A stretch of 64,000 nt of DNA from an uncultured Bacilli bacterium (GTDB lineage: Bacteria; Bacillota_I; Bacilli_A; RF39; UBA660): contig CAKOMY010000005.1 of assembly GCA_934096815.1 (NCBI GenBank), positions 46,807 to 110,806 of the forward strand. The letters are read 5' to 3'. This document shows positions 6,409 through 34,166 of this stretch, piece after piece. The notes below the pieces were generated by a model. It worked only from the letters and a program-made list of their open reading frames with translations. It was not told where the DNA came from and did no database searches. The position numbers and the translations under genes were made by a program. Positions within the stretch are counted from its first letter, which is position 1, and each line of letters opens with the position of its first letter.

Positions 6409-6409
6409 A

Positions 6410-9286: not shown

Positions 9287-9297
9287 ATTAACACCAC

Positions 9298-9747: not shown

Positions 9748-9758
9748 ACTCCTATCAA

Positions 9759-12069: not shown

Positions 12070-12150
12070 TTGGTGTTACCATTGGAACATAAAAGAGCAT
12101 TTTTTTCCTTTATTTTCAAGACTTCCACTAAGAGTTCCAATGTTCTTATG

Positions 12151-13833: not shown

Positions 13834-13874
13834 TATTCCTCACTCTCCTTTCATGTTCTTAAAAAGCAAGATAA

Positions 13875-14123: not shown

Positions 14124-14139
14124 GTTATACCATCCTCAT

Positions 14140-14409
14140 TTAACTATATGAGATAAAGATATAAATAATACTAAATAAAAATACACATTTAGGATTTTTA
14201 ATTCTACCATTTTCTAGTAACCATAATTCTATTTCAGATATATCTGATATTCTAAATAAATCACTTAAAGTAAGATTTAATTTATTTCTTGCTATTTTAA
14301 TTATTTCACTTAATTTTTTATATTTAATTTGTCTCTCTTCCTCTCTAGCACTCTTACTAGATATTTTTAATGCACAAAATAAAAAAAGTGATAATCCTAA
14401 AACTAACAC
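14140..14409 (-). CDS. XRE-like HTH-containing ORF, possibly degraded
   Basis: IKIARNKLNLTLSDLFRISDISEIELWLLENGRIKNP looks like an XRE HTH. The ORF starts at GTG with a hydrophobic leader, and short out-of-frame ORFs lie just upstream. Confidence 0.3.
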   Translation of the reverse strand: MLVLGLSLFLFCALKISSKSAREEERQIKYKKLSEIIKIARNKLNLTLSDLFRISDISEIELWLLENGRIKNPKCVFLFSIIYIFISYS

Positions 14410-14506
14410 TATAAATACTATAAATATTAATCATTTCAAAAATGGCATCATATCACCTCATTTTCATAATAAAAAAGAATAGAAATTCTTTTAGAAAATC
14501 TATTCT

Positions 14507-15016
14507 TTATTTAACTTTATTAGCAAGCTTTATAACTGCTTTAGTATATTTCATAAGTTCTTTTTTATTTTTAAATCCACAAGTCATTGCATAATAATCA
14601 GTATAGCTATCATCTTCTTTTACTAACTTTAATTGTAAAGATTTATTTATATTATAATTTTCTTTAGCAGACAAGTTAGATAATTTAGAATAATCTTTGA
14701 TTGTTATATTATAAAGTGGATCATTGCTTTTAAATTTATCATATATTTCATTTGATATTATACAATTATCAATAAGTTCCTCGTTATTCTCAAACTCTAT
14801 TAATGTCTTGTTTTTTTCAGGATATACTGTTACATTTTTAACTCTATCAATGTACACTACTTTTCCATCTTTTATTTTACCAACATATGGTTCTCTTGAT
14901 GATAGTAAAACAATAATTAGTATAACAACTAGAAGAATACTTGAAATAATGATAATTTGTTTTTTAGATAGTTTCTTTATCTTTAATTTTGTCTTTTTCA
15001 CATTACCATCCCTCAA
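14507..15016 (-). CDS. Membrane-anchored hypothetical protein (169 aa)
   Basis: N-terminal Lys-rich stretch followed by a TM helix (IIIISSILLVVILIIVLL). No known domain recognised. Confidence 0.5.
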   Translation of the reverse strand: MRDGNVKKTKLKIKKLSKKQIIIISSILLVVILIIVLLSSREPYVGKIKDGKVVYIDRVKNVTVYPEKNKTLIEFENNEELIDNCIISNEIYDKFKSNDPLYNITIKDYSKLSNLSAKENYNINKSLQLKLVKEDDSYTDYYAMTCGFKNKKELMKYTKAVIKLANKVK

Positions 15017-15059
15017 TTTTTATATTAAAAAGGAGTTAGAGAAAACTCTAACTCACAGT

Positions 15060-19604: not shown

Positions 19605-19635
19605 ATCTTCCTCCTTCCTATATAACTATACTATT

Positions 19636-19691
19636 TTTTCACTTTCTTTAATAGATGAAAAAAGTCATATTATTCTTGCAAAAAATATGAC
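19636..19691 (-). promoter_or_regulatory. Conserved promoter/leader module, copy 1 (upstream of the adhesin gene)
   Basis: TTTTCACTTTCTTTAATAGATGAAAAA at 19636-19662 and AAAAATATGAC at 19681-19691. The same two blocks occur with the same 45-nt offset upstream of 19986-21197. Confidence 0.5.
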
Positions 19692-19719
19692 TTTTGACAC
19701 ATTTTAAATATTTAATACC

Positions 19720-19938
19720 TTAATTTACTACGGCTACACAATACACTTCTAATTTTTGCCCTCCAACGGTAGTTGCAGTAATTGTAGCAGATGAGTTGAT
19801 TGTAGCATTTACTTTTCCAATACAAGTAGTATCATTTGTTGTAACACTTCCTGAAACAGTTCCACTTGTAGACCATTTAACACTTTGATTTGATTTAACA
19901 GTAAAATCATTAGAGCCAGTATTAAAATATCTATTTTT
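19720..19938 (-). pseudogene. Start-less Big_2-like (bacterial Ig) domain remnant
   Basis: Hand translation gives KNRYFNTGSNDFTVKSNQSVKWSTSGTVSGSVTTNDTTCIGKVNATINSSATITATTVGGQKLEVYCVAVVN*. A stop lies immediately upstream and there is no ATG. Confidence 0.35.
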
Positions 19939-19985
19939 ATCATTTTAATTATTTTTACTCTTTTTTACTGAATACTTTTTTAATA

Positions 19986-21197
19986 TTAAGCAACATAGTT
20001 CTTTATATCAACAAAGAATTTTTGTTCTGCTTTTGTTTTTGCGTGTAATCTTACATCACCACTAACTCTACTAATAGCACCCGTTGATGCTACAATAGTA
20101 TCAAAAGTATAACCACCTTTTACAGATGTTGATGTTTTACTTATAAAATCTTTATATGTATATTCATAGCTTACTGATGAAGTTAAAGTTACATCCCAAG
20201 TTACATTTTGATTTGCAGTTACATAATAACCATTACTATCTCCATAAAAAGAAGCATATTTACTATAAGACTCTCCTTTTGATGTTAATTCTAAGTCTTT
20301 TTCATAATAAATTGTTTGCTCAGCAGTAGTTCCACTTGGTGTTTTTGCATAAACTTTAATCGCTGCACCTTTTGAACATGCACCATTATTTTTAGCTGTA
20401 ATAACTCCAGTTTTAGCATCAATACCCATACATAATGTATTACTTAATGAGTATGTAACATCTCCTGTAGCATTTTCTACTTTTGCGCTCGCTTTTGCTG
20501 TTTTTATTCCATTATAATGAATTGTATCTCTTGATAAGCTTAATGTAATTTTTTCTGGTTTAACTTCAATCGTAGGTTCTTCTTTCTTTTCTTGTTTTGG
20601 TGTTTCTTTCTTCTGCTCTACTTTTTTCCATTTAGCATATAAAGTTGTATCTTCACTTAGTAATGCTTTATTATAAATTGGTCTATCATTAACATCAACC
20701 CAACCTTTAAAAGTATAACCTTTATAAGTAGGATCTTTTGGTAGTGTTAGTTCTGTTCCTTTATTTATAGTAATAGCATCAACATTTGATCCACCTTTAC
20801 TATCAAAAGTAACAGTAATAGTTTTAACCACTCCCTCATATACCGCTTTTAATTTGATATTTTTATTTATTTTAGTTTTAAAGTCATAAGGTTTATCTGC
20901 TAAAACATCTTTTCCATCTTTTTCTTCTAAAATTAAATACCAATCAATAAACTGTTCTCCTAAATCTTCTTTTGTTTTAACATCTTTACTATTAATGGTT
21001 TTATTGTATTTAACATATACTACTTCTTCTTTTGTACCATTATTATAATCAAATGTTACTTCAAATTTACGATTAAAGAACCATAATAAGAATAAAATAA
21101 CTATTAATAGTAATAGACCAGCTACTATTAAAATAATATTTTTTTTCTTATTGTTTTTAGAAGTTTTTTCTTCTTTTTCTTTACTTTTAGTAAACAT
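19986..21197 (-). CDS. Membrane-anchored surface protein with Listeria-Bacteroides (Flg_new/InlB B-type) repeats and an Ig-like region
   Basis: N-terminal TM helix. VTFDYNNGTKEE...FIDWY and ITVTFDSKGGSNVDAITINKGTELTLPKDPTYKGYTFKGWVD...TLYAKW are typical Flg_new repeats. Confidence 0.7.
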   Translation of the reverse strand: MFTKSKEKEEKTSKNNKKKNIILIVAGLLLLIVILFLLWFFNRKFEVTFDYNNGTKEEVVYVKYNKTINSKDVKTKEDLGEQFIDWYLILEEKDGKDVLADKPYDFKTKINKNIKLKAVYEGVVKTITVTFDSKGGSNVDAITINKGTELTLPKDPTYKGYTFKGWVDVNDRPIYNKALLSEDTTLYAKWKKVEQKKETPKQEKKEEPTIEVKPEKITLSLSRDTIHYNGIKTAKASAKVENATGDVTYSLSNTLCMGIDAKTGVITAKNNGACSKGAAIKVYAKTPSGTTAEQTIYYEKDLELTSKGESYSKYASFYGDSNGYYVTANQNVTWDVTLTSSVSYEYTYKDFISKTSTSVKGGYTFDTIVASTGAISRVSGDVRLHAKTKAEQKFFVDIKNYVA

Positions 21198-21227
21198 AAT
21201 ATCTCCTCCTAATAATATTATATATTA

Positions 21228-21283
21228 TTTTCACTTTCTTTAATAGATGAAAAAGGTAATACAAATTTAAGAAAAAATATGAC
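21228..21283 (-). promoter_or_regulatory. Conserved promoter/leader module, copy 2 (upstream of 19986-21197)
   Basis: Identical 27-mer TTTTCACTTTCTTTAATAGATGAAAAA at 21228-21254 and AAAAATATGAC at 21273-21283. It lies in the divergent intergenic region shared with the LuxR-type regulator gene. Confidence 0.5.
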
Positions 21284-21376
21284 AAAAGTAATAGTTTTTC
21301 TATTAAACTCATTGTTTTATATATGAAAAATTCAACTTTGATGATATAGTATTTATATATTCTTGAGGTGAATATT

Positions 21377-22006
21377 ATGGTAAATAAGAAGAAAATAATG
21401 ATTATTGAAGATCAAGCACTGCTTAACAATATGTTAAAGAATACTTTATCAAATGATTATGATATTGTCTGTACATGTACTAGTGCTAAAGATATGATGA
21501 ATTTATATAAAAAATATAAACCTGATTTAATATTAACTGATGTAGTTACTAAAGAAGGTGCTAATGGTATAGAATATGCCAAAGAAGTAAAAGATAAATA
21601 TCACAATAAAGTAAAAGTACTTGCTATTACTGGTGTACCAGAAATTACTTTTTTAAATACTGCTAAAGAATATAATTTAGATGGATTAATATATAAAGAC
21701 ACAGATAGTGAATCATTACTTTTTAGTATCAGTCAAGTTCTAAAAGGATATACTCTATTTCCTGATAATTGTATGTATAGTGAAGAAAGTGAAAAATTTA
21801 AAGATCTTTCAGATAAAGAAATTAAAATAATAAGATGTATATGTGAAGCTAAAGATAGAAATGAAATTGCCGAAGAATTAAATATAACCTCAGGTACTTT
21901 AAAAAATTATATTTCAAATATTCTTACTAAACTAGGTTTTGATAACATAACTAAACTTACCATATTTTGTTTAAGTAATGGATATATTGTTCCTAATCAA
22001 AAATAA
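21377..22006 (+). CDS. NarL/LuxR-family response regulator
   Basis: REC domain (IMIIEDQ...DLILTDV...KVLAITG) plus a LuxR HTH (LSDKEIKIIRCICEAKDRNEIAEELNITSGTLKNYISNILTKLG). GAGG lies 8 nt before ATG 21377. Confidence 0.85.
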   Translation: MVNKKKIMIIEDQALLNNMLKNTLSNDYDIVCTCTSAKDMMNLYKKYKPDLILTDVVTKEGANGIEYAKEVKDKYHNKVKVLAITGVPEITFLNTAKEYNLDGLIYKDTDSESLLFSISQVLKGYTLFPDNCMYSEESEKFKDLSDKEIKIIRCICEAKDRNEIAEELNITSGTLKNYISNILTKLGFDNITKLTIFCLSNGYIVPNQK

Positions 22007-22046
22007 AGAAGAAATATTTTGTAAAATTGATTTCTTCTTTTTTATG
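22005..22046. terminator. Bidirectional intrinsic terminator between convergent genes
   Basis: 11-bp stem AAAGAAGAAAT (22005-22015) pairing with ATTTCTTCTTT (22030-22040), followed by TTTT. Confidence 0.6.
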
Positions 22047-23157
22047 CTTTTATTATTAATTTAAAATTATCATCAGTTATAACTTTTAAACTACCATTTA
22101 TATTAGATAATTTCTTACGCATTCCTTTAATTCCTTCATTTTCAAATATAACACTTTTTGGTTTATTACCATCATTTGTTATAACCATTTCTATATAATT
22201 ATCACGAGCAGTTATAACTACTTTAATATTTTTACTATTAGCATGAATAATAGCATTAGTAATAGCTTCTCTTATTATTTCAAAAAATACTATACCTTTT
22301 TCTTCATCTATAGGTAAAGCACCAAAAACTTTAACATTTATTCCTATAATACTATACATATTTATCAAGTTTTTTAATTTTTCATTGCTATCTAGTTTTG
22401 AATTAAAATCTTCATAAATACTATCTAATAATTTTAATATGTTATTTATATCCTTATTTTCTTGTTCTAAATATTTATCAAACAAAGCAAGTCTATATCC
22501 TATTATATCGTGATATTCATTTTTAAGTTTTAATAAGTTCTTTTCTCTTTCTAATTCTTCAACATTTTTAATAGCAAGTAATAATTTATCATTATTTTCT
22601 TTAATTTGCTTATTTTGTTTTTTTTCTTCTTCTTGTAAAGAATATAACTCTGTTATATCTATTAAAGATACTTCTTTATTATCATATATATTTAACATAT
22701 ATACTTTATCATTATGCTTTAGTAGATAATTATTATTTACTTTCTTAAAACTTCTCTTTATTAGATTGTTTATAAAGTCTTCAGTAATATTTAGTCCTTT
22801 TAAAATATCAGAAAATAAATTATTTATTAAAATAATATTATTTTCATCTAAAAACATTATTCCAGTATCAGATGCATCAATACCTTTTTTAACAGATAAA
22901 ACTGATATATATTCATTTTTACATAATTTTTCATATATAAAACTAATCAAAATATAAAATGATAATAACAAAGATAAATACTTAGTTATTTTAGAAATAT
23001 CAAGTAAATTAAAATACTCTAATATAACCATAACTATTAATATTAATAATTCAAATATTTTTTTAATACTTGATGCATCTTTTCTTAAAAAGAAAGTAGA
23101 TACTCTAACAACTTGTATTAATGTAATTATAATGGTAATTATAAGTAATATTTTCAT
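22042..23157 (-). CDS. Sensor histidine kinase, NarL-partner (HisKA_3) type
   Basis: N-terminal TM helices, H-box EYHDIIGYRLALF, N-box REAITNAIIHANSKNI, and a G-box-like GIKGMRKK. Confidence 0.8.
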   Translation of the reverse strand: MKILLIITIIITLIQVVRVSTFFLRKDASSIKKIFELLILIVMVILEYFNLLDISKITKYLSLLLSFYILISFIYEKLCKNEYISVLSVKKGIDASDTGIMFLDENNIILINNLFSDILKGLNITEDFINNLIKRSFKKVNNNYLLKHNDKVYMLNIYDNKEVSLIDITELYSLQEEEKKQNKQIKENNDKLLLAIKNVEELEREKNLLKLKNEYHDIIGYRLALFDKYLEQENKDINNILKLLDSIYEDFNSKLDSNEKLKNLINMYSIIGINVKVFGALPIDEEKGIVFFEIIREAITNAIIHANSKNIKVVITARDNYIEMVITNDGNKPKSVIFENEGIKGMRKKLSNINGSLKVITDDNFKLIIKA

Positions 23158-24752
23158 TTTATAACACCACCTTTTATAACAAATTCTAGTTCTGTATCTG
23201 TATCATATATTTTTTCTTTTATCAAAACACTAGAATCTATTTTTATTTTATTCTTTAAAGATTTATCAGTATCTATAATAGCTTTTAGTTTAACATTCTT
23301 ATTTTCTTTAGAAATAAATAATACAATAGATTTATCATTACTACTTTCTATAAGTTCATATACAATATCATACAACAAAGACATTGTATTGCCGTTTATT
23401 GTCATCTTATTATTAATACTAATAAAACTCTTTATATTAGTACTCTTCATACTATTTAATAATTCATCTAATAATGCTTTAATTCCATTTTCGTTATAAG
23501 AATCTCCATTAATTTCAGATATTATTAACATACTTTTCTTTTTACTATATATAATTATTCTTTTAATTTTTTCAAAATCTTTTGTGGATACATCTTTCTT
23601 CTTTAATATCTTTTTAATCTCATTTCTTTTTTCAGTAAGTTTTAATTCAACTTTATCTATAACATCTTTTCTTATTTGCATTTCATATAATTCTTTTTTA
23701 GTTTTTTCTTCTAATCTTATACTTTCTTGTTGTTCAAGTAATTCTTTCTTTTGTTCATTTATTTCCTTTTCAAGTTCAAGAATACTAGATAAATCTTTTT
23801 TTAAGATAACATAACTATCTTTGTTCTTTTTTATATCATAAATAATATTTTTATTTTTATATGTTTCTTTCACACTATTATTATTTATATCATCTAATAA
23901 TTTTTTAGGAATATTATCAAACACATTCGTAGTATATTTGGTTTTACCATCCAATGAAATAATAGCCATATTTAAATTAGAGTTAGAAAATCTACTTTTG
24001 TATTTACTATTATTAGGAATTAGATTTAGATAAAAAGCAAGTTCAATGCCTACACAAATTAATGCACTATTAACAATGGACATATTTATACCTCTTACAT
24101 AAGGAACATTTAACACATAAAGAATTGTGTATGTTAGACCTAGTAATATTACTATAAACGGTAAAAATCCTTTTATATCTTTTTTTATTTTCATTCTATA
24201 AATTGCTAAATCTATTAAACTTTTACTAAATAAATAAAATATCCAAATAGATATTAAATAATATCCTATAAAATGTTTATAATCATCAAATAAAACTATT
24301 CCTTTAACAAATTTAAATACTAATTCGTGAAAATCATTAGTTAAAACAAGGAGTAATAAAAAGCACGAAATTGAATATATAATTTTTTTCTTTGTTTTAT
24401 TCATTTTACCTAATAATGATAATGAACTAATATAATATAGTGTTGGAATAAAGATTAGTGGCAAATAATATAGATACCAACACATTCTTTCTGTTAGTGG
24501 AGAAACTGCAATTCCTTTTATAATTCTTATTAACATCCAAAATACAATAAGTAATCCAATAAGCAAAATATATCTTCTTGTCTTCTTATCATACAGTTTA
24601 TAATAAAGTCTTATTGTCCAAATAGTGAACAATATAGCAAATAAAAATGTAATAAACTTATTCATAGTATTATCCACCTCTTTTCTTAAAAAATAAGTAA
24701 TAGCTAATACTAATATAATATATTTTACAAAATATTTAAATAATGTTATCAA
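23154..24752 (-). CDS. Multi-pass membrane sensor-like protein with coiled coil and degenerate kinase-like C-terminus
   Basis: About 7 predicted TM helices in the first ~250 aa, then a charged coiled coil. It overlaps the downstream kinase gene by 4 nt (ATGA). No catalytic motifs recognised. Confidence 0.45.
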   Translation of the reverse strand: MITLFKYFVKYIILVLAITYFLRKEVDNTMNKFITFLFAILFTIWTIRLYYKLYDKKTRRYILLIGLLIVFWMLIRIIKGIAVSPLTERMCWYLYYLPLIFIPTLYYISSLSLLGKMNKTKKKIIYSISCFLLLLVLTNDFHELVFKFVKGIVLFDDYKHFIGYYLISIWIFYLFSKSLIDLAIYRMKIKKDIKGFLPFIVILLGLTYTILYVLNVPYVRGINMSIVNSALICVGIELAFYLNLIPNNSKYKSRFSNSNLNMAIISLDGKTKYTTNVFDNIPKKLLDDINNNSVKETYKNKNIIYDIKKNKDSYVILKKDLSSILELEKEINEQKKELLEQQESIRLEEKTKKELYEMQIRKDVIDKVELKLTEKRNEIKKILKKKDVSTKDFEKIKRIIIYSKKKSMLIISEINGDSYNENGIKALLDELLNSMKSTNIKSFISINNKMTINGNTMSLLYDIVYELIESSNDKSIVLFISKENKNVKLKAIIDTDKSLKNKIKIDSSVLIKEKIYDTDTELEFVIKGGVIK

Positions 24753-24813
24753 TTTTTAGGTAAAGCAATGAATTTTAACTATAATTTTGTTAGAAGATAT
24801 TTGGTGATAAATA

Positions 24814-25623
24814 GTGAATAAAAAAAATAAAATTATACTATCAATAATTATAATCATTTCTTTATTACTATTAATTTATTCTATTGTAAATATAGTTATT
24901 TGGAAAAACGATTCTAATAAAACTAATAAACAAATAGAAGAAGTTCAAGAAACAATTAAAGTAGAAGAAGTAATAGATACTGAAAATACTGAAATAATAG
25001 AACAAGTAGAAGAAATACCAAAATCTAACCCATATTGGGATTATATAAAAATGAATATGATAGACATTAACTTTAATGAATTAAAAAACATCAATAATGA
25101 TGTTAAAGGTTGGATTAAAGTAAATGGTACTAATATAAATTATCCTTTCGTTCAATCTAACAATAATAAATATTATTTAACACATAGTTTTGATAAATCT
25201 TATAATTCAGCTGGTTGGTTATTTCTAGATTACAGAAATAATATAAATAATAATAAAAATACTATTATTTATGCACATGGTAGAAATGATAAAACTATGT
25301 TTGGATCATTAAGAACTGTATTAACTAAAAACTGATTATCTAACACAAATAACTATGTAATAAAAATATCTACTGAAAAGGAAAATAGTTTATGGCAGAT
25401 ATTTAGTACTTATCGTATACCTACTACTAGTGATTACTTACAAACTAATTTTGAAAGTGATATTGAATATCAAGAATTTTTGGATATGATAAAAGATAGA
25501 AGTAGTTATAACTTTAATACAAGTGTTAATTCTAACGATAATATTCTTACTTTATCTACATGTTATAATAATAGTGATAAAATGGTAGTTCATGCTAAAT
25601 TAATTAAAAAAGAGCAAAAATAA
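24814..25623 (+). pseudogene. srtB: Class B sortase interrupted by a single in-frame TGA (25333-25335)
   Basis: The part before the stop reads ...NINYPFVQSNNNKYYLTHSFD...IIYAHGRNDKTMFGSLRTVLTKN*. The same frame continues LSNTNNYVIKISTE...LQTNFESDIEYQEFL...ILTLSTCYNNSDKMVVHAKLI, which carries the TLSTC catalytic Cys. The total of 269 codons fits SrtB. Confidence 0.8.
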
Positions 25624-25654
25624 AAAGATTGGATAATATATAATATGATACTTA

Positions 25655-26035
25655 TTATATATTACGGTGTTCCATATCAATAAGATACTTGGCATAATTG
25701 AAGGAATTCTCATTCCCAACCCTCATTTTATATTTTAAAGAACACTTTTCATATCCCTTTCTAATAATACTTAACCTATTTTCCTTATCAAATATCTTAA
25801 CATCTTTTAAAAAACATAGAATCATTTCTTGTTCTTTTAATGTTACTTCCAGAATTCTACATCTATACTTAAAGAATATTCCTTTAAGTAAATAATTTCT
25901 AGTTATCTTTCTATCCTTTTTAAGAACATAATCTTCTAAATCATCATATAACTCTATTACCTTGGCATCTTTGTTGGTAGTTAATTTTTTATAATTATTA
26001 GTGTTAATATCGTAAGAAAGTTTGTTTTTTTCTAC
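25655..26035 (-). pseudogene. Start-less ORF remnant of unknown family
   Basis: Hand translation gives VEKNKLSYDINTNNYKK...DDLEDYVLKKDRKITRNYLLKGIFFKYRCRILEV...NSFNYAKYLIDMEHRNI*. There is no usable start for the first ~70 codons. Confidence 0.25.
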
Positions 26036-26193
26036 TATCCTTTACATGATTTGAAACATCCTTTTGGCTGTTTCAAATAAGTTCTGGGTGGTATATATTA
26101 CCATCATGGGCAAAATCAATGGTAGTATAGTCTTCCTAATGATTTAATACAATTTAAGGGATAATTAAAGAACTTAAAAATGTTCTTGTAGTA

Positions 26194-26214
26194 ACATCAA
26201 GATTGCTTGGTGTT
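26194..26214. other. attP-like site of the element-B recombinase family (junction between B1 and B2)
   Basis: ACATCAAGATTGCTTGGTGTT equals the right-end arm of element B (ACACCAAGA, one mismatch), then the TTGC core, then the left-end arm (TTGGTGTT). Confidence 0.65.
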
Positions 26215-26487
26215 CACACAGCAACACTTTAAGACCGAAGAATGCCTTGCACAAGCAAGGTTTTTAGAACTCAAACTTTTTAATGAGTTATCTTCGTTCA
26301 TATCTAAATCTATGTCTATGTCTGGAGTATTAAAGTCATAATATACTTTTAATCTTACATTTTTTCTATCACTATTGATTTTTTCAATCTCTACTTTTTC
26401 AACTAATAAATTAATTAGATATGCTAAATTTTCTTTTATATCTAATTTAGTATTTAAAGAATTTTCAATAGTTTCTAATTTCTTCAT
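26197..26487 (-). pseudogene. C-terminal relic of a third large serine recombinase
   Basis: LINLLVEKVEIEKINSDRKNVRLKVYYDFN aligns with LSR B LMRILVERVEVEKINGDRKHVRLIIYFNFN. Only about 75 homologous residues remain. It is truncated where the ABC ATPase gene ends. Confidence 0.7.
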
Positions 26488-27256
26488 TATTTATCACTTT
26501 ATAATTATTCGTATTTAGTTCTTTTTCTAATAAAACACTTACTTTTTTTGAATCATCTGTTTTAATTACTAGACATTTAGAACATTCTAAATCTAATTCT
26601 TCTTTTGATAATTCCTTAATTAATTTCCCATTTTCAAGAAAACCAAATTCATTTGCTAAAAGGTATAATTCTGATAATATGTGACTAGAAATAAGTAGAG
26701 TTATTCCATTATCTGATAACTTCTTAAATGTGTCTCTAAGTTCACTAATGCCTATTGGATCTAATCCATTTATTGGCTCATCTAATATAACAAAATCAGG
26801 ACTATTTAATATTGCTAATGCTATTCCTAATCTTTGTTTCATTCCTAGTGAAAATGTTTTAACTTTTTTCTTACCTGTGCCTGTTAGATTTACTAACTCT
26901 AATACTTTATTAATTTGGTTTTTATCTACAATACCTCTTTGAATAGTATAATATTTTAAATTATCATAAGCCGATAAATTGGGATAAAACGCTGGATATT
27001 CAATTAATGATCCAACTCTTTTTTTATTATCAAAAAGTTCATCATTTTCACTGCTAGTATTAAACAATTCAAATGTTCCACTTGTAGGAGATGCTAGCGT
27101 TGTTATTATTTTCATTAATGTTGTTTTACCAGCACCATTACGACCAATTAAACCATAAATATCCCCCTTTTTAATTGTTATATTAACATTATCTAATACT
27201 ACATTTTTATTATATTGTTTTGTTAAATTATTTGTTTTTAATACAACTTCTTTCAT
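26465..27256 (-). CDS. ABC transporter ATP-binding protein (BcrA/lantibiotic-export-like), no adjacent permease
   Basis: Walker A GRNGAGKTT, signature FSLGMKQRL, Walker B FVILDEP. Confidence 0.85.
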   Translation of the reverse strand: MKEVVLKTNNLTKQYNKNVVLDNVNITIKKGDIYGLIGRNGAGKTTLMKIITTLASPTSGTFELFNTSSENDELFDNKKRVGSLIEYPAFYPNLSAYDNLKYYTIQRGIVDKNQINKVLELVNLTGTGKKKVKTFSLGMKQRLGIALAILNSPDFVILDEPINGLDPIGISELRDTFKKLSDNGITLLISSHILSELYLLANEFGFLENGKLIKELSKEELDLECSKCLVIKTDDSKKVSVLLEKELNTNNYKVINNEEIRNY

Positions 27257-27328
27257 ATAATCATTCCTTTCAAATTAATTATACAAAAAAAGTGTTAAAA
27301 ATTTCTTAACACAATCCTTAAATTTTCC

Positions 27329-27997
27329 TTAATTTTTGAACTTATATCCAATACTCCATATAGTTTCTATATAGTCTTTGTTTGGATTTGCTTTTTTTAG
27401 TTTATTTCTAATTTTACTTATATGAACATTCAAAGTATTTTCATCAGCAGAATCAATATTGTCCCATACATTATCAAACAAAATACTTTTTGTTACTACT
27501 TGATTATTATTTTCCATAAGTAGTTTTAATATGTCAAATTCTATTTTAGAAAGATTAATATTCTTATTATTACAAACAACACTATATGACTTCTTATTAA
27601 TTTCTACATCATCAATAGTTATTATATCTTTACTATCTGTATTTGTTTTTCTCAAATGAACTTTTATCCTAGCAAGTAATTCGGCATTATTAAATGGTTT
27701 AGTAATATAATCATCAGCACCTAATTCAAATAAATCTAATTTTTTGTCTATATCATTAATTGCTGTAGTTATGATAATAGGAACATCATTAATAGTTTTT
27801 AATTTTTTGATAATTTCTTCACCATTTTTCCCAGGTAACATTAAATCTAAAATTATTAAATCAATTTGTTTATTATGAATCAACAATGCTTCAGTTCCAG
27901 AATATGCAGTACTGACATTATATCCATTATTTGATAATAATTCTTGCAACATTTCATTTATATTTTTATCATCTTCTATTATTAAAACTTTTTTCAT
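27329..27997 (-). CDS. OmpR-family response regulator (no cognate kinase adjacent)
   Basis: REC domain (KVLIIEDD...DLIILDLMLPG) plus a winged-helix trans_reg_C (LNVHISKIRNKL...IETIWSIGYKF). The start was set at Met 27997. Confidence 0.85.
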   Translation of the reverse strand: MKKVLIIEDDKNINEMLQELLSNNGYNVSTAYSGTEALLIHNKQIDLIILDLMLPGKNGEEIIKKLKTINDVPIIITTAINDIDKKLDLFELGADDYITKPFNNAELLARIKVHLRKTNTDSKDIITIDDVEINKKSYSVVCNNKNINLSKIEFDILKLLMENNNQVVTKSILFDNVWDNIDSADENTLNVHISKIRNKLKKANPNKDYIETIWSIGYKFKN

Positions 27998-28091
27998 TAA
28001 AGCACCACCAAACATATTAACTAACAAATATTATACCACAAAAAGTAATTCTATAATTGAACTGTTCCATAGATTGTAATTTTTCAATTAC

Positions 28092-29162
28092 TTACATATC
28101 TTTTTTGTGTTTTATAAATTCAATATTATTTCTTTCTAAATCTTCAATAGTAATATCGCCATATTCTAAAGATGTTGCAACTGTTTCTTGATAACCATTA
28201 GAATAAATAACAATTACATTTTTACTTTTGATACAAGGAAAATAATAAATAAATTCTTTATCTTCATAAAACTGTTCCAATGCTTCAGCACAAGCGATAT
28301 TTTCTTCTTTTACTTTATCGATTATTTTTAAATGAGTAAATGGCTGATTATTTTTATTTATATAATTTTTTTCACTTATCAATACTACTCCAATAACAAG
28401 AATAATAGGTATAACTATAATTATAATCTTCCTAAATAAATCTTTATAATTAATCTTGTTTTTTTCTAAAAGAAATATATTTTTCAATAACTCATTAATA
28501 GATTTTATATGCAATATTTCATACATTATTAAAGAGCCAGATACATTTAAAATTACATCATCAATATCACAAGATCCAGACATAGTAATAAACTGCAATA
28601 ATTCAATTCCAGTCACTATACAAATCATAGTTAATAGAAAAGTTTTAAAATTATTTTGTTTCTTAAATAGTAATGGCAAGAAGAAAGCAAAAGGCATTAA
28701 TGCAATAGCATTACCTAATATATTATAGATAAAAATATAAGGTGCTATATTGCCACTAACAAACTTTGTAACATAAGAGATAATCGTTTTGAAAGGAACA
28801 AGATTAAGTGAATTAGATAAATAGTTTTTAAATATTTCATTGTTCCAATTTAATATATTAAAATTACCTCTGTAAAAGTAATCATCAAATAAAGTAAGTG
28901 TTGAGAGTAGTATTATATATAACAATAACCATATTGAAATATTGATTTTGAAAATTTTCTCTTTATATTTCTTATCAACATATTTAGTTAAGAAGAATCC
29001 CCCTAAATACATTAGCAAACAACTTGCTGATAATAATATTATTCTTCTACTAGGGCTTAAGTGGAATAGTTTATTAAATTGTAAACTAAAATAATAGATT
29101 AATATTATTGCTGACAATAAATAAGTAATTATACTAACTATCAAATTTATCTTCTTTTTCAT
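28092..29162 (-). CDS. VanZ-like membrane protein with C-terminal extra domain
   Basis: NLVPFKTI...NILGNAIALMPFAFFLPLLF...DIDDVILNVSGSLI is the VanZ family pattern. Multiple TM helices. Confidence 0.65.
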   Translation of the reverse strand: MKKKINLIVSIITYLLSAIILIYYFSLQFNKLFHLSPSRRIILLSASCLLMYLGGFFLTKYVDKKYKEKIFKINISIWLLLYIILLSTLTLFDDYFYRGNFNILNWNNEIFKNYLSNSLNLVPFKTIISYVTKFVSGNIAPYIFIYNILGNAIALMPFAFFLPLLFKKQNNFKTFLLTMICIVTGIELLQFITMSGSCDIDDVILNVSGSLIMYEILHIKSINELLKNIFLLEKNKINYKDLFRKIIIIVIPIILVIGVVLISEKNYINKNNQPFTHLKIIDKVKEENIACAEALEQFYEDKEFIYYFPCIKSKNVIVIYSNGYQETVATSLEYGDITIEDLERNNIEFIKHKKDM

Positions 29163-29193
29163 ATTTCATCTCACTTTCAAATTGTTATTTGCA

Positions 29194-29526
29194 TTACTTT
29201 CTATTTAATGATTTGCATATTGAACTTCCAATAAATAATCCAATACTTGCAACAACTAAATACCATACAGAATGAATTAAAGCCGATTCATTATAATAGA
29301 TAAAAACTGATGGTATAAATATTATTGAAGTAAATACTGAATAGAAATATTTAATTTTATTATTAGATAAAATTCCAATAAGTAATGATAATATAAATGT
29401 TCCAACAATTATTAAAAACACCATTCCCATTGCATCTGTTGGTCCTGCAAATAATGGTAAAACATAAAATAATAATAATTGTAAAATACCTATTATAATT
29501 TCTTTAATATTCTTTTTCATAATCAA
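29194..29526 (-). CDS. Small integral membrane protein (110 aa)
   Basis: About four hydrophobic helices. No family recognised. Confidence 0.45.
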   Translation of the reverse strand: MIMKKNIKEIIIGILQLLLFYVLPLFAGPTDAMGMVFLIIVGTFILSLLIGILSNNKIKYFYSVFTSIIFIPSVFIYYNESALIHSVWYLVVASIGLFIGSSICKSLNRK

Positions 29527-29734
29527 TCCTCCATTTCAACAAATTACTATTTTCATAATAGATTTATTACTTAATTATAACATTTTTAGTAAAATAAAAA
29601 TAGTCCTGTACTAGCGACTATTATGTTTTTTACTACCTCACAAAAAGGAACAGTGAGCAGTAAAGTAAATGGTTTATTGTAGTAATATTTATTTACAACA
29701 ACTGTATAATAACATTTTTAGACAATAATTGCAA

Positions 29735-30072
29735 TTACTTTGTATAGTCATTTGATATAAAAAGTTTAGAAAATTCTTTTTGAGCCTCATCCATTTCATC
29801 ATTTATATTTCTAATAGCATTTTCTATTTCTTGTTTATTTTTAAATTTTTGCTTAGAATTAGTATTAGTGAAATATGTTTTTAATATATCTTTTCTTGTT
29901 TGTTTTTTGTTATCAAGATAATACTTTAATATTATTTCTTGAATAATATCATTTTCTTTTATCTTAGTAACATTTTTAGATTCTTTTTTATAATTGTAAT
30001 TAGAATAATTAACAATGGCATTATATATATAATTAAACTTATTTATACAGTTGTTAAATAAAAAAATAGAAT
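29735..30072 (-). pseudogene. Start-less ORF continuing (in another frame) from 30076-30444
   Basis: Hand translation gives LNDSIFLFNNCINKFNYIYNAIVNYSNYNYKK...NAIRNINDEMDEAQKEFSKLFISNDYTK*. There is no ATG until near the end, which suggests a frameshifted gene. Confidence 0.25.
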
Positions 30073-30075
30073 CAT

Positions 30076-30444
30076 TTAACTAAATTCTATCTTTTCAAAA
30101 TCAGATAATTTTTTGTTATATTTTATTTCAATTAACGAAATAGCATTAGATATTATACTTTGTTTCTCTTTTTCTGATAATTTAATCCTTTTTTGTAATT
30201 TATTAAAAACATCGTTCCCAGTAATACCATTATACTTATGATTAGATAATTCATAATTTAAAATTAATAGTTCAGATAATAAACAAGTATAATGATATTT
30301 GAATAAATCTTTTTCTTTTCTACTATAATCTATATCAAATATATTCATGAAATAACCTCCAGTTGCTTGAATGCTACCTCGTTTGAAATAAATTGTCAAA
30401 TCATCATATTGCATAATATTTATAAAATTCATCTTTAAGATCAT
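30076..30444 (-). CDS. Hypothetical protein (start uncertain; overlaps upstream ORF by 41 nt)
   Basis: ORF only. No motif recognised. Confidence 0.3.
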   Translation of the reverse strand: MILKMNFINIMQYDDLTIYFKRGSIQATGGYFMNIFDIDYSRKEKDLFKYHYTCLLSELLILNYELSNHKYNGITGNDVFNKLQKRIKLSEKEKQSIISNAISLIEIKYNKKLSDFEKIEFS

Positions 30445-31033
30445 AAGGATTAATTTTATTTAATTCAAAACTACCTTTTATAAAAGGTAAAACTATATCT
30501 ATATCTGATAGTTCTTTAACTTTGTAAGAAAGACATAATGGCTCATAATTTTTATGAGTAACAATGTTTAAAATATTGTCCTTATTTTTTACTTTTAAAA
30601 CTTTTACATAAATACCATAATTAGTTTTAGAAAGTAGTACAAAATTTCTTTTTTCTTTAAACATTAATCCTTTATTTGTATTATGAAAAGTAATACTTTC
30701 TGATATAGTAGTAATCTTAAATCTTAAGATATTGAACAATCTATCACTTAAACTTTCTTGTGGGTTAGTAAAGTAATTATACATATCTCTAACTATTTTA
30801 ACTGCATAATCACAACTAGTATTATCTTCAATGATTAATGAGTAGCAAATACTATTCCTTTCATACCCCTTACGATCTACTAATTTATTAAAAGAATCAA
30901 ATTGTTTAGCAATCCTATGAAAAGACACTAAAATATTATTTTGATTTATTTGTATTTCAACAATTCTATTATCTAATTTATAGACAACATTTTTTACTAG
31001 GTAATTTCTTATGATGTTTTTACTTATAGCCAT
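30404..31033 (-). CDS. Hypothetical protein; the frame stays open about 150 nt upstream without a start codon
   Basis: ORF track plus hand translation upstream (KSINQISNDKKDNTKKINDKVYNVDT...) back to a TAA that follows a GAGGTGG SD-like site near 31199. This hints at a nonsense or start lesion. Confidence 0.35.
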   Translation of the reverse strand: MAISKNIIRNYLVKNVVYKLDNRIVEIQINQNNILVSFHRIAKQFDSFNKLVDRKGYERNSICYSLIIEDNTSCDYAVKIVRDMYNYFTNPQESLSDRLFNILRFKITTISESITFHNTNKGLMFKEKRNFVLLSKTNYGIYVKVLKVKNKDNILNIVTHKNYEPLCLSYKVKELSDIDIVLPFIKGSFELNKINPYDLKDEFYKYYAI

Positions 31034-31333
31034 TATAGAAGAATCTAATCTATTAAATAAATCTATTGCAATTTGCTTTTTATTATAAATTATATTTTCA
31101 TAGGTATTAGTATCAACATTATAAACTTTATCATTAATCTTTTTTGTATTATCTTTTTTATCATTAGATATTTGATTAATAGATTTTTATATTTTAACCA
31201 CCTCGTCATTTGTATATGAAACATTATTATAGATAAGATTAAAGGTAGAACAAACCTCAATTTGGGTAGAAGTATTTGTGTTATTTAAAGATAGTTCTTC
31301 AAATTTATATGTGTTGCTGTATTGACACCAAGA

Positions 31334-32379
31334 TTGCAAGAGTTTTCGACGACGTTTAAAAAAGTTTCAGAACCATGTCCTCCTCTTTTCCAACATTTAA
31401 TTCTGGCATTTTCAACTTGAATTGATCCACCATCGTAATAATGATCATCAAATAAGTTTACTTTTCCTTCATTTATAGCACTAGATAGAGTTATAATTTT
31501 AAATGTTGAACCGGGTTCATAAGTCATCCATATTGGTAAGTTTCGGTTAATAGTTTCTAAGTTATAATTTTTATAATTATTAGAATCAAAGTTTGGGCGA
31601 GATGACATAGCAAGAACTTCTCCACTATTAGGATCCATTACTAAGGCTAAAGTACTGTCTGGATTATATTTTGTAACTACATTATCTAATTCTTTTTCTA
31701 CTGCTGATTGAATATCTATATCTATTGTTAAAGAAATATTATTGCCATTAACTGGCTCATCATAAATTTCTGATAAATTTAAACGATTTCCTTTACCATC
31801 AGAATAATATAATATACCTCCGTCATTACCTTTTAAATACTTATCATATTCAAGTTCAATTCCAGATAAACCTTGATTATCTATACCAACATATCCTAAA
31901 ACATGAGAAAGTAATGATTCATATGGATAATATCTTTTAGATTCTTTAAGTAAATAGACTCCATCATAATTTAAATTATTTATTTTTTCAGCTACATCAT
32001 ATGATAATCTTCTTCCTTCAGGATGAATTCTTTCAATTGAGGTATGTTTGGTTAAATGGGTATAAATATTTAAATAAGTTGTTCCTAGTATTTCAGATAA
32101 ATTTTTAGCAACTTCTTCTTTATTTTGAATTTGAACCGGAATAACTACTAAAGATGTTGTTGTTAAATTATCAGCAAGAACTATACCATTGCGATCAGTA
32201 ATTTTACCTCTATCAGCAAGAATTGGTAAGTTACGACTCCATAGGCTACCTGCTTTATCTTTTATATTATTTACTTTAAATACTTGAAGATAAAACACTC
32301 TTAATATTATTACTAAGAAAGTTATTAAAACTATTAAATAAACATAAAACATTCTTTTATGAATACGATAATGAAGCAT
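31334..32379 (-). CDS. spoVD: spoVD-like PBP, segment 1 of 3 (membrane anchor, dimerisation domain, SxxK and SxN boxes)
   Basis: TM helix YVYLIVLITFLVIILRV. EPGSTFKIITLSSAINEGKVNLFDDHYYDGGSIQVENARIKCWKRGGHGSETFLNVVENSCN parallels the SpoVD sequence as I recall it. After SCN the listed ORF runs into element DNA (LGVNTATHINLKNYL*). AGGTGA SD precedes ATG 32379. Confidence 0.85.
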
Positions 32380-32566
32380 TAAAATCACCTAATTAAATAT
32401 ATTAAATATAAACATTGTTTAGAATTAAATGTGTTCTTGTAATTTACTTCATGGTAGCATGGATTTATATAATAAAAGATTACCAAATTAAGTAATCTCT
32501 ATTGTTTTAATAATTTAATTAACTCATTAAAATATTACTGTTAAATCAAAAAAGTGGATTGAAAAA

Positions 32567-33418
32567 TTACATTTCAACTAATTCATTTTCTAAGATATTT
32601 ATTATTTCTCTTAACGAATTAATTGTGTCTTCAAAAGTAACTCCTTTTGTATATTCTAGTTTACTTTGATAATCGGTAAATACTCTTTTTAAAGCATTAC
32701 TATTTTCTAATATTTCTACTATTTCTTTGAAATTAACTATATTAAATTTAGTATTTCTTTTATTAAAAGTATTCGTTATGGCTTTAACCAAATTCTTATT
32801 ATTAATGTCTTTTTTTTGTTTATTCTTTAGCATATATAAATCATAGAAATCTTTTGCTCTTGTGGTAGTTATATTTTTACTAATAATACTTTCAAACTTT
32901 TCAGCGATAATGGTTTCAATAGTATAAGCCATGATATTTATCTTTTTATCTTCAAAAATAGAATTATATTTATATTTTATTTCTCTTGGTGTAATAATAT
33001 CTCCTGTGGTAATTTCGATAAAAAAGTTTGCTCTTATTTTATCATAAGTACCTTTGACATTTATTCTGAATCCACCATAATCATCTTCTAATCTAATATC
33101 TTTAATATTAACTATTTCAAAATTAACATTATCATCTATATCTATACATAAAATTTCTTCAAATATATTTTTAACAGACTCTATATTTAATGGTAGGCTT
33201 TTTAAAGTAGCATCAATATCTTTTGTAGTTCTTAGATCTTCTCCAATAATAGAAGATAATAAAACTCCACCTTTTAATATAATATTATCCTTGTATTTAC
33301 TTTTTTCTATTCTCATTAAAACGTGTTCAAAGAAAAACATTTGATGAAGATGATGAGCTAAATTATTGTTACCTTTAGATTTCTTTTTAATTATATTATT
33401 TAATTTATCTGAATTCAT
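32567..33418 (-). CDS. abiEii: AbiEii-family nucleotidyltransferase toxin (chromosomal paralog)
   Basis: IILKGGVLLSSIIGEDLRTTKDIDATLKS. 283 aa, collinear with the element-A copy and roughly 70 percent identical by eye. Confidence 0.85.
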   Translation of the reverse strand: MNSDKLNNIIKKKSKGNNNLAHHLHQMFFFEHVLMRIEKSKYKDNIILKGGVLLSSIIGEDLRTTKDIDATLKSLPLNIESVKNIFEEILCIDIDDNVNFEIVNIKDIRLEDDYGGFRINVKGTYDKIRANFFIEITTGDIITPREIKYKYNSIFEDKKINIMAYTIETIIAEKFESIISKNITTTRAKDFYDLYMLKNKQKKDINNKNLVKAITNTFNKRNTKFNIVNFKEIVEILENSNALKRVFTDYQSKLEYTKGVTFEDTINSLREIINILENELVEM

Positions 33419-34012
33419 TTATAATAAAACCTCCATCAATTCTACAACTTCTTCTTCGATATCTAACTTTCTAGCATATTTAACTAGTTTTAAAATATTT
33501 TTATCTTTATTTCTAGCATATTCTTTTAATGCTTTTGAATAAATTTCTTTATCCATTCGATTTTTATCTTTAATAATATCACATAATGTTCTTTCTAAAT
33601 CATAACACTTAACAGTTAGATCATTAATAGTTTTAATGTTAATCATTCCTAGTTCAAAAATATCATCTTTGACATATCTAAGAGATACATTTTTATTATT
33701 TAATAAATTACCACTATAGTTATATGGAACAGTTATATCATAAACTAAGGGAATTCTATCAGACATGTTATGTAAATACAAACTAGTTGCATGAGAATAG
33801 CACATATTTTTGCTACTTTTAGATAGAATATAAAAATTATCAATTGGATATTCAGGTAATTTATAAATACCAGTTCCAACTCTTTCTAATTTCTTATCAT
33901 TTACTAAATTACTTAAAAATGTACTGTTAACTTCTAAGTTTTTCGTTTCTTTTGTCGTAATATATCCATTATTTTTTTTAGCAAAATCTAAAATTTTATC
34001 ATAATTATTCAT
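33419..34012 (-). CDS. abiEi: AbiEi-family antitoxin (chromosomal paralog)
   Basis: NNGYITTKETKNLEVNSTFLSNLVNDKKLERVGTGIYKLP. The C-terminal half is collinear with the element-A AbiEi. Confidence 0.8.
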   Translation of the reverse strand: MNNYDKILDFAKKNNGYITTKETKNLEVNSTFLSNLVNDKKLERVGTGIYKLPEYPIDNFYILSKSSKNMCYSHATSLYLHNMSDRIPLVYDITVPYNYSGNLLNNKNVSLRYVKDDIFELGMINIKTINDLTVKCYDLERTLCDIIKDKNRMDKEIYSKALKEYARNKDKNILKLVKYARKLDIEEEVVELMEVLL

Positions 34013-34166
34013 ATATATCGTTTCCTTTTTTCAGGAAAATTATAACATTATTCCTAGAAAATATCAATTTAAAATTTATTATATTAATTGATAATATCTT
34101 TATAATTTAATTTTAAGATTAGCAAAAAAATGTTGAGAAATTAATTATTTAATTTCCCAACAGTTC

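Follow-up and report, generated by a model that had tools for sequence, protein, structure and literature searches.

Why does the sporulation gene spoVD of an uncultured gut Bacilli bacterium carry a 19-kb insert at a single codon, with one intact recombinase gene near one end and what looks like a further attachment site in its interior? We addressed this question in a stretch of 64,000 nucleotides of contig CAKOMY010000005.1 (positions 46,807 to 110,806 of the forward strand; GenBank assembly GCA_934096815.1), referred to below as the window. An earlier reading, made from the sequence alone (the sequence-only reading), had proposed that the insert, element B, consists of two related elements, B1 and B2, integrated in tandem at the same spoVD site. 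Judged by its anatomy and by comparison with related genomes, insert B comprises two related mobile elements lying next to each other, of which one has an intact large serine recombinase (LSR) and the other an LSR tail only, with a hybrid attachment (att) site between them. We consider it very probable that this tandem array arose by site-specific accretion at the Asn codon of the spoVD SxN motif, B2 being a decayed resident, B1 its neighbour and the internal site a chimera of the two.

spoVD is split twice and can be rebuilt in silico

In the window spoVD lies on the minus strand and is interrupted by insert B at codon ~349 and by a separate element, A, at codon ~415. Three fragments of the gene result:

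31336–32379, minus strand: spoVD N-terminal part, residues 1 to ~349, ending at the SxN motif (...VENSCN); delimited from the list of open reading frames (ORFs) and collinear with the intact spoVD of loci L024–L028
11868–12065, minus strand: spoVD middle fragment, residues ~350–415, between elements B and A
526–1191, minus strand: spoVD C-terminal part, residues ~416–635, including the PASTA domain

The conspecific contigs L024–L028 carry an uninterrupted spoVD in which the flanks of the window abut, with a 4-nt overlap (TTGC) at insert B and a 2-nt overlap at the element A junction. Removal of the element recovers this empty site exactly, as expected of precise, conservative integration. Deleting A and B in silico yields an in-frame SpoVD of 635 aa, which scores 714.7 bits against the TIGR02214 spoVD_pbp equivalog model of NCBIfam (cut-off, 688) and is distinguished by a single residue (M590N) from P0015, an uninterrupted SpoVD cluster with 472 members from contigs of up to 344 kb. 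The split gene differs from the intact alleles of L024–L028 by 17–24 synonymous and 2 non-synonymous changes and shows no decay. The target dinucleotide of insert B, AA, begins the Asn codon of the SxN active-site motif (...VENSCN followed by PGF...). A sporulation-specific gene is thereby split by DNA whose precise excision, in silico, restores the frame. The earlier claim that only joint removal of B1 and B2 restores spoVD stands as far as insert B is concerned, with the addition that element A at codon ~415 must go too. In Bacillus subtilis spoVD acts in the mother cell. A homologue of cotE lies near the locus.

A hybrid attachment site lies between B1 and B2

We located the following sites and elements in insert B, analysing the att sites by hand and with a script:

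12051–12097, plus strand: attL of the composite; spoVD B arm 12051–12065, central TT 12066–12067, P′ arm of B1 12068–12097
26176–26234, plus strand: internal chimeric attachment site; P arm of B1 26176–26202, central TT 26203–26204, P′ arm of B2 26205–26234
31308–31335, plus strand: attR of the composite; P arm of B2 (TATGTGTTGCTGTATTGACACCAAGA) and central TT
31336–31354: B′ arm of attB, within the spoVD N-terminal part
~12068–26204, minus strand: element B1, ~14.1 kb, described from its ORFs and precomputed Pfam matches
~26205–31335, minus strand: element B2, ~5.1 kb, decayed and recombinase-less, described from its ORFs, precomputed Pfam matches and comparison with locus L060

The 21-mer at 26194–26214 reads ACATCAAGATTGCTTGGTGTT. 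As the sequence-only reading had noted, with the correct sequence and coordinates, it consists of the right-end arm of the insert (one mismatch, T for C), TTGC and the left-end arm. The right end itself (31321–31337) reads ...GACACCAAGATTGC and passes into spoVD at AAGAGTTTTCG, and the left end (12060–12079) reads CCGGGGTTGC, then TTGGTGTTAC. The TTGC core lies at 12066–12069 in the left end (flanked by ...AAAACCGGGG and TTGGTGTTACCATTGG), at 26203–26206 in the internal site (...GTAGTAACATCAAGA and TTGGTGTTCACACAGC) and at 31334–31337 in the right end (...GTATTGACACCAAGA and AAGAGTTTTCG). The idealized 21-mer occurs once in the window at up to three mismatches and matched in none of 100 dinucleotide-preserving shuffles; the match is non-random. 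The contrary view, that the 21-mer is a chance or pseudo-att sequence within a single 19-kb element and the 96-aa ORF beside it an unrelated small gene, can draw on the shortness of the match and nothing else. We regard it as practically negligible, given that both halves of the site are element ends found separately elsewhere (L060, L108 and L110) and that the ORF matches the tail of an intact LSR with 98% identity.

The similarity extends well beyond 21 nt. When read toward the centre, the four element-side arms have 18–22 of 30 positions in common, with the pattern TGTT(C/G)...(A)ACA(C/T)CAAG, whereas the P and P′ arms agree with the spoVD B and B′ arms at only 8–12 of 30. In the same way, the 30 nt left of the internal core and the 30 nt left of the right-end core are identical at 21 positions, either of them matching the spoVD arms at 8–12; the loose similarity previously remarked on at this place is real and is essentially a recombinase half-site. 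The P-type arms reach ~25 nt to each side of the centre. Because the element-side arms are alike over 30 positions and the spoVD arms are not, we take the att site to be ~50 bp, the size of an LSR attP, rather than 21 nt; the proposed attP-like site is therefore retained, with its extent enlarged to ~26176–26234. The arrangement has the features of an LSR element, namely an imperfect inverted-repeat attP of ~50 bp, a 2-nt crossover and an attB unlike attP. A direct-repeat search over 11.5–32 kb returned only AT-rich chance families and missed the short att repeats.

At the heart of the site is an inner palindrome, ACACCAAG-A-TT-G-CTTGGTGT, with TT at its centre. The block of identity between attB and attP is GCAA in the window, AATC in L034, GTAA in L041 and AACC in L059, and the only part common to these blocks is AA (TT on the window plus strand). 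On this comparison the exchange point is most likely the TT within TTGC, at 12066–12067, 26203–26204 and 31334–31335. Because the crossover is placed there, B1 extends over ~12068–26204 and B2 over ~26205–31335, so that the original partition (12070–26202 and 26207–31333) is kept and its limits are refined.

Assignment of arms to elements by symmetry works for B2, whose P and P′ arms read as an inverted repeat at 22 of 30 positions, and fails for B1. Because P(B1) pairs equally well with P′(B1) and P′(B2) (19 of 30 each), the assignment rests on solitary elements. The left half of the internal site equals the P arms of B1-type elements in L034, L036, L039 and L110, and the P′ arm of L060 and L108 recurs unchanged as its right half. 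Set against these elements, the internal site is a chimeric junction, P(B1)-TT-P′(B2). Nesting of one element within the other is excluded, B1's other end abutting spoVD.

A junction of this kind could also be produced by an assembler joining B1-bearing and B2-bearing strains. The window does come from a metagenome assembly (it is identical to scaffold_619 of ENA ERZ28615496), and strains with different site occupancy coexist in the population. Such an artefact is nevertheless very improbable, and we exclude it because the junctions of single elements (a B1-only attR and a B2-only attL) have only TTGC in common, 4 nt and far below assembler k, and because the exact 46-nt internal junction recurs in five other loci, in contigs of at least four samples and different assemblers. 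With one mismatch it is present in L007; a one-mismatch copy lies in a 260-kb contig at 45x coverage.

B2 occurs alone, both complete and decayed

The genes of B2 are as follows:

26197–26487, minus strand: LSR relic, a 96-aa ORF with the C-terminal 95 residues (472–566) of a B2-type 577-aa LSR
26465–27256: ABC ATPase
27329–28027: OmpR-type response regulator
28092–29162: VanZ-like protein, 356 aa
30404–31033: right-end gene, broken, a 209-aa remnant
also in B2: a 122-aa ORF and a 110-aa membrane protein

The 96-aa ORF had been aligned with the C terminus of LSR B, the intact recombinase of B1, and BLASTP bears this out: it matches residues 472–545 of LSR B with 42% identity over 76 aa (E=1e-16). 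A tblastn search of the whole window with LSR B returned LSR B itself, LSR A (1162–2829, 39% identity) and the relic (E=7e-12). Against the intact LSR of L060 the relic is 98% identical over 95 aa (residues 472–566), and the last 290 nt of the L060 LSR gene are 99% identical to it. The relic keeps those residues only and has no catalytic domain, and its deletion junction with the 3′-terminal part of the ABC ATPase gene is located at ~26487–26495.

L060 is the GTDB representative metagenome-assembled genome (MAG; CAKOJQ010000016.1) of the same species, with a SpoVD that is 99% identical in amino acids. Its sole spoVD insert at the B site measures 6.1 kb, is ~99% identical to window positions 27593–31320 and has the same attR. 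This complete B2 encodes, besides an 86-aa ORF, a 577-aa LSR that is intact and has the Resolvase, Recombinase and Zn-ribbon domains; the element's P′ arm (GTGTTGCTGTGTGAACACCAAGCAA) lies directly against spoVD; a full-length homologous element with the same arm structure, which the tandem interpretation called for, therefore exists. The L060 LSR is 73% identical to LSR B overall, with a highly conserved N-terminal half and a divergent C-terminal quarter. Because the B2-type LSR is only 73% identical to LSR B, the relic derives from a distinct LSR lineage and is not a copy of LSR B. The earlier description of B2 as having its LSR cut down to the tail is right as to the deletion (residues 472–566 are left) and is corrected as to the lineage.

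The decayed form was also found alone. In L108, an 821-bp contig from another sample, B2 lies directly on spoVD without B1 and without A; it is 99.7% identical over 326 nt, including the same junction at which the ABC-ATPase 3′ end and the LSR tail are fused. Further genomes (L020–L023) have B2-type P′ arms on spoVD. Among them, L023 carries a frameshifted LSR and L021 a near full-length B2-type LSR, which we count as supporting evidence only because of a 10-N scaffold gap. With the relic as query, searches returned only short ORFs (86–150 aa) and no full-length LSR; the full-length B2-type LSR came from the genome scan with LSR B (L060) and from L021. B2 has kept both attachment arms, identical or near-identical to those of complete B2, and its LSR is reduced to a 95-residue tail. 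By these comparisons it is an element in its own right, now decayed and non-autonomous in the manner of a cis-mobilizable element (CIME).

We also considered whether B2 is more conserved than its flanks, as a sign of autonomous movement (in L108, 1/326 versus 16/494 mismatches, p=0.004), and dropped this argument, as the L060 mosaic described below also takes in spoVD-N and homologous recombination accounts for it equally well.

Several further observations concern B2-type elements. The window B2 and the L060 B2 are both deletion derivatives of a larger ancestor, because the L060 element (8938–9648) is without the ABC ATPase gene and its response regulator is fused to another C terminus, which recurs in L023 (1389–2393) fused to an LSR N-terminal fragment. 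B2 is polymorphic at window positions 29535–30040, where L017 carries an insertion at ~29758 with a gene for a tyrosine integrase (326 aa), and L005 a deletion of ~440 bp. The right-end gene encodes 311 aa and is intact in L005, L007, L009 and L060, and in the window it is present as the 209-aa remnant plus fragments. The B2-type LSR ORF crosses the attachment site and ends within spoVD (L060, 10001–11734 with 5619–6554); in a circle built in silico it continues in frame into the right-end gene, giving 874 aa in L060, 656 in L072 and 616 in L082, and the joined attP of L110 (3311–5884) likewise contains an 857-aa LSR read-through. This read-through is not universal, the ORF stopping earlier in L062, L077, L088 and L097. 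In the window's P(B1) arm, a G-to-A change creates the stop codon of the LSR relic.

B1 is mobile between species

B1 carries the only intact recombinase of the array. Its parts are:

12068–14185: recombination module, LSR B and the 82-aa ORF
12151–13833, minus strand: LSR B, intact, 560 aa; Resolvase (PF00239), Recombinase (PF07508) and Zn_ribbon_recom (PF13408) domains, N-terminal YARVSTD motif
13875–14123, minus strand: 82-aa ORF, immediately upstream of LSR B
15060–19604: surface protein with NPQTG, 1514 aa
24814–25335: frameshifted sortase
25640–26202: right-end region
further cargo: a 403-aa Flg_new protein, a LuxR-type response regulator and two histidine-kinase-like proteins

Both LSR B and the complete B2-type LSR of L060 have the full three-domain architecture of an LSR. 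An ORF of the 82-aa kind always adjoins the LSR in B1-type and B2-type modules (L021, L023, L032, L060 and L110), and by its position it is a candidate recombination directionality factor (RDF). Searches of Pfam and NCBIfam gave no match for the 82-, 89-, 169-, 122- and 110-aa ORFs or for the relic.

Scanning one genome per species with LSR B yielded 79 loci. In 67 of them the LSR gene lies just upstream of the downstream part of spoVD and on the same strand, and both spoVD halves can still be matched as open coding sequence. The MAGs of L029–L037 combine LSRs 94–98% identical to LSR B with a SpoVD of just 53–75% identity, and on this ground we consider the B1 module to be horizontally mobile. 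The B1-type P′ arm abuts spoVD in L029–L040. Solitary B1-type elements with matching P and P′ arms occur in spoVD of other species in L034, L036 and L039. Those of L034 and L036 measure 3.7 kb and have the P arm TCTTGGTGTTACTACAAGAACATTTTT (spoVD sense strand) and the P′ arm TTTTATGTTCCGATAGTAACACCAAGCAA; the former agrees with the left half of the internal site, the latter with the right half of attL. What B1-type elements share is a core corresponding to window positions 12066–14185 (LSR and 82-aa ORF), with 90–94% nucleotide identity in other species; the cargo varies. In L110 (JABLTL010014249.1) the right end of B1 (25667–26214, 90%) is joined to its LSR B end (12225–13843, 86%) through a complete B1 attP, ...GTTCTTGTAGTAACACCAAGATTGCTTGGTGTTACTATCGGAACAT...; the contig is linear, 7.1 kb long and without terminal overlap, and may be a circle fragment or another tandem. 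On these comparisons B1, too, is an element in its own right. Related genomes thus supply what the tandem interpretation had asked for, B2 complete and alone in L060, decayed and alone in L108, and a B1-type element alone in L034 and L036 (other species); together with L110 and the empty-site strains, they support integration of B1 and B2 in tandem at one spoVD site.

A second attP-like palindrome, ATGTTCTTATGGTGATATAGAGA-TT-CAAAACAGCTGACATAAGAACAT, lies at window positions 12140–12187 on the minus strand, where it overlaps the LSR B stop codon. It is intact, ~95 bp from attL, and its TT is oppositely oriented. In L035, L038 (LSR 95% identical) and L042, the spoVD B′ arm is joined exactly to the centre of this second palindrome, with the LSR gene lying inverted with respect to spoVD; in L095, where both ends can be seen, the layout is inverted in the same way. 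It may therefore be that B1-type modules have two alternative inverted attP sites ~95 bp apart, which would permit insertion in either orientation by the same recombinase.

Other observations also concern B1-type elements. The B1 sortase is shortened to 173 aa in the window versus an intact 269 aa in L007. The contigs of L008 and L009 break at window position ~25610 (region 25400–25900), and that of L008 continues into an N terminus that, by eye only, resembles an IS256-family transposase. In L102 (11680–11800) an LSR 95% identical to LSR B, with a normal P′ arm, is joined to sequence other than spoVD (GTAACACCAAGCAA, then TACAAGCATTAAGAACATC...), and the 21-kb locus contains no SpoVD match; it could represent a secondary target or another stacked element.

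How the array may have been assembled

From the distribution of single elements we infer the following order of arrival. An intact B2, a member of a family of 6-kb LSR elements, would have integrated at spoVD, as in L060. A deletion would then have removed the small upstream ORF and LSR residues 1–471, fusing the LSR tail to the ABC ATPase gene, as in L108; with the LSR lost and both attachment arms kept, B2 is now non-autonomous. Finally, B1 would have arrived between the spoVD B arm and P′(B2), by recombination of attP(B1) with the left junction of the resident B2, creating the internal P(B1)-TT-P′(B2). In the window, B1 occupies the stretch from B2 to the downstream portion of spoVD.

The final structure is symmetrical with respect to order. 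Had B1 been resident first and B2, decayed or not yet decayed, integrated at its right junction (P(B1)-TT-B′), the reaction attP(B2) x attR(B1) would yield the same internal site and the same attR. We nevertheless judge this order improbable. L108 has the identical LSR deletion in a B2 that is alone and L060 an intact B2 that is alone, so that arrival of B2 first needs fewer events, and a same-species genome with B1 only was not found.

The flanks record further exchange. Between the window and L060, identity is 97.0% in the upstream flank, 99.4% in spoVD-N, 99.0% in B2 and 96.1–96.5% in the middle and C-terminal parts of spoVD. Those middle and C-terminal parts are 98–99% identical to the empty-site strains L024–L028, and the switch coincides with the position of B1, a mosaic that suggests homologous exchange around the array. 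It bears on another alternative, in which the B1+B2 composite formed in another lineage and entered this one as a unit, through recombination of a hybrid attP, P(B2)-TT-P′(B1), with the attB of an empty spoVD, the internal site being inherited. We think such a transfer unlikely, although it has more in its favour than B1-first arrival: the window's B2 is 99–99.7% identical to the B2 of L060 and L108 while its spoVD middle and C-terminal parts are only 96–97% identical to theirs and 98–99% identical to L024–L028; only a canonical LSR reaction would be needed in the window's lineage; and tandems of a CIME with an integrative and conjugative element (ICE) that move as a unit are documented (PMC5704250). 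Yet the upstream flank, including the AbiE insertion, is L060-like and not L024-like, and homologous recombination fits the pattern equally well. Moreover, accretion still had to occur somewhere, which makes this a variant of the explanation by accretion, with the same anatomy.

Predicted excision of the array

LSR B, the only intact recombinase in the B array, would act on the P-type arms, probably together with a directionality factor for which the 82-aa ORF is a candidate. Acting on attL x internal site, it could release B1 alone, so that B2 stays; acting on attL x attR, it could remove B1+B2 as one 19.3-kb circle, regenerating attB; and it could remove B2 in trans. An intact 635-aa SpoVD would result only after removal of B1+B2 and also of A, the latter by LSR A. 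By analogy with other sporulation-gene intervening elements, this removal would occur in the mother cell.

Each outcome has a predicted signature. The circle junctions would read ...ACATCAAGATTGCTTGGTGTTACC... for the 14.1-kb circle and ...ACACCAAGATTGCTTGGTGTTACC... for the 19.3-kb circle. The chromosomal junctions would be TCGAAAACTCTTGCAACCCCGGTTTTG (attB), AAAACCGGGGTTGCTTGGTGTTCACACAGC (B-P′(B2)) and GTAGTAACATCAAGATTGCAAGAGTTTTCG (P(B1)-B′), and the corresponding circle sequences GTAGTAACATCAAGATTGCTTGGTGTTACCATTGG (B1), TATTGACACCAAGATTGCTTGGTGTTACCATTGG (B1+B2) and TATTGACACCAAGATTGCTTGGTGTTCACACAGC (B2).

A number of points weigh against assembly and excision by this route. Phage-type LSRs of the canonical kind are known to join only attP with attB or, given an RDF, attL with attR, and attP x attL is not known as a permitted pair; accretion would require an attP x attL-like or attP x attR-like reaction. 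Use of the right arm of B2 by LSR B is uncertain because it is in the C-terminal, site-reading half that the two LSR types diverge most (42–55% identity between LSR B and the B2-type LSR). The internal P(B1) arm has a G-to-A change in its conserved inner motif (ACATCAAG). Scans of JGI metagenomes and IMG/VR gave no excision product or circle junction of the B1/B2 array: circle-junction searches returned one relevant match (L110) and two GC-rich chance matches in JGI metagenomes and none in IMG/VR. No same-species genome with B1 alone was found, L108 need not derive from the window's lineage, and the order of events is harder to infer because homologous recombination has reshuffled the locus. 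Accretion at the SxN codon remains our preferred explanation of insert B. The wider model, in which this LSR family routinely recombines attP with an occupied junction, elements stack at the SxN codon, and LSR B then removes the array and a second LSR removes A so that spoVD is rebuilt in sporulation, is tentative, and we rate it as somewhat unlikely.

Elements accumulate at spoVD

The second interruption of spoVD in the window is due to a separate element:

1192–11867, minus strand: element A, an LSR element at spoVD codon ~415, with a 2-nt overlap at the junction
1162–2829: LSR A, 39% identical to LSR B

Its cargo comprises an AbiEi/AbiEii pair (9759–11245), a 958-aa repeat protein and other genes. 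Relatives of element A occupy the same spoVD codon in L055 and L083, and in L032 the LSR A homologue is internally deleted, leaving N-terminal and C-terminal pieces of 92 aa and 94 aa.

Stacked and decayed elements are present at this site in other genomes as well. L032 has, in order, a B1-type LSR, a complete attP-like junction of B1 type, a 5-kb element bearing a third LSR (50% identity), spoVD and an A-like element with the internally deleted LSR. L039 has an intact LSR and a second LSR 3′-tail relic beside attL, L023 an extra LSR N-terminal fragment, and L050 an internal fragment of LSR B type 22 nt from spoVD. The distance from the LSR to spoVD exceeds 400 nt in 6 of the 67 loci, of which only L032 and L039 show att or relic signs of stacking; the others look like loci in which cargo lies downstream of the LSR. 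At spoVD codon ~296, other species (L050, L067, L068, L085 and L104) have an insertion by yet another LSR lineage, ~41% identical to both LSR A and LSR B, so a single spoVD can carry elements at three codon positions (~296, ~349 and ~415). Across the genomes compared, spoVD proves to be a hot spot for LSR elements in uncultured gut Bacilli, one previously undescribed; our literature search found no paper linking spoVD to an intervening element.

The outer flanks of spoVD also vary. Directly upstream of the gene, at 32537–34166, an AbiEi/AbiEii toxin–antitoxin pair forms an indel relative to L024–L028, with a 38-nt overlap at the join, and is 72% identical in nucleotide sequence to the AbiE pair within element A. 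Downstream of the spoVD stop, window positions 1–525 have no match to the post-spoVD sequence of L024–L028 (MerR regulator and ABC transporters), and the left edge of the window may lie in yet another strain-specific insertion.

Implications

The locus is chiefly of value as a natural system in which to study how selectively LSRs pair their sites and how stacked elements depend on one another. For the question of how strict serine integrases are in this pairing, the array is a sequence-defined att set; besides attB it holds attP of two types, junctions of three types and a single chimeric junction, with single-element and empty-site counterparts in related genomes. The mechanistically interesting step is the inferred recombination of attP with an occupied junction, and if it does take place, its host clade is one of uncultured, small-genome gut Bacilli. 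If the array is excised in sporulation, restoration of spoVD depends on a neighbour carrying out a recombinase-less element, and such a mobile-element dependency would have a direct fitness read-out in spore cortex synthesis. For genome engineering, the locus and its relatives offer closely related integrases (73–98% identical) with known, slightly different att arms.

Comparison with known systems

Accretion beside a decayed resident, with a chimeric att site between the partners, is known from ICESt1/ICESt3–CIME of Streptococcus thermophilus and from the composite of an ICE with an integrative and mobilizable element (IME) in S. agalactiae, with its chimeric attI (PMC5704250). As in those composites, two related elements are adjacent at one target in spoVD, one without a recombinase but with both att sites; the internal junction is chimeric; each partner occurs alone at the same target in other genomes (B2 in L060 and L108, same species; B1-type in L034 and L036, other species); and the same excision patterns are expected (inner, outer and whole). 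The CIME cases, however, involve tyrosine integrases and identical core repeats regenerated at each junction, usually at a tRNA gene or a gene 3′ end, whereas the spoVD array has an LSR with a 2-nt crossover, only TTGC (crossover TT) being common to all junctions. It also sits inside the coding sequence of a sporulation gene, which is inactivated until removal. Because the enzyme is a serine and not a tyrosine recombinase, we do not place the array in the ICESt/CIME family.

The staphylococcal cassette chromosome (SCC) composites and tandems (SCCmec with SCC, and ACME, an arginine catabolic mobile element), mobilized by Ccr LSRs at rlmH (bioRxiv 10.64898/2026.03.31.715619), resemble the array in being LSR-driven tandems with internal att sites and recombinase-less partners, in which one recombinase could excise the whole or parts. 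They differ in their target, the rlmH 3′ end as against spoVD codon ~349, and in that SCC integration preserves the target gene whereas spoVD is split. LSR B scores 128.9 bits against the CcrB model and 121.8 bits against the CcrC model (cut-off, 900 each), and with Ccr scores of ~125 versus 900 bits and a different target the array falls outside the SCC family.

In anatomy, the spoVD array fits among the sporulation-gene intervening elements that combine an LSR with a small directionality factor, such as skin (sigK), SPbeta (spsM, SprA/SprB) and gin (gerE, GirC/GirX) (PMC4191935, PMC5499854, PMC5595907). As in these, an element with non-phage cargo and a terminal LSR splits a mother-cell sporulation gene whose frame precise removal would restore, and, as in gin (GirC/GirX in gerE; PMC5595907), a small ORF lies beside the LSR, here as a candidate directionality factor. 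Unlike skin, SPbeta and gin, the spoVD locus is hit at two sites by three elements (A, B1 and B2), one of them without a recombinase and so expected to depend on its neighbour. Taken together, these comparisons make the spoVD array a clear natural case, of an already known kind, of elements piling up at one recombinase target.

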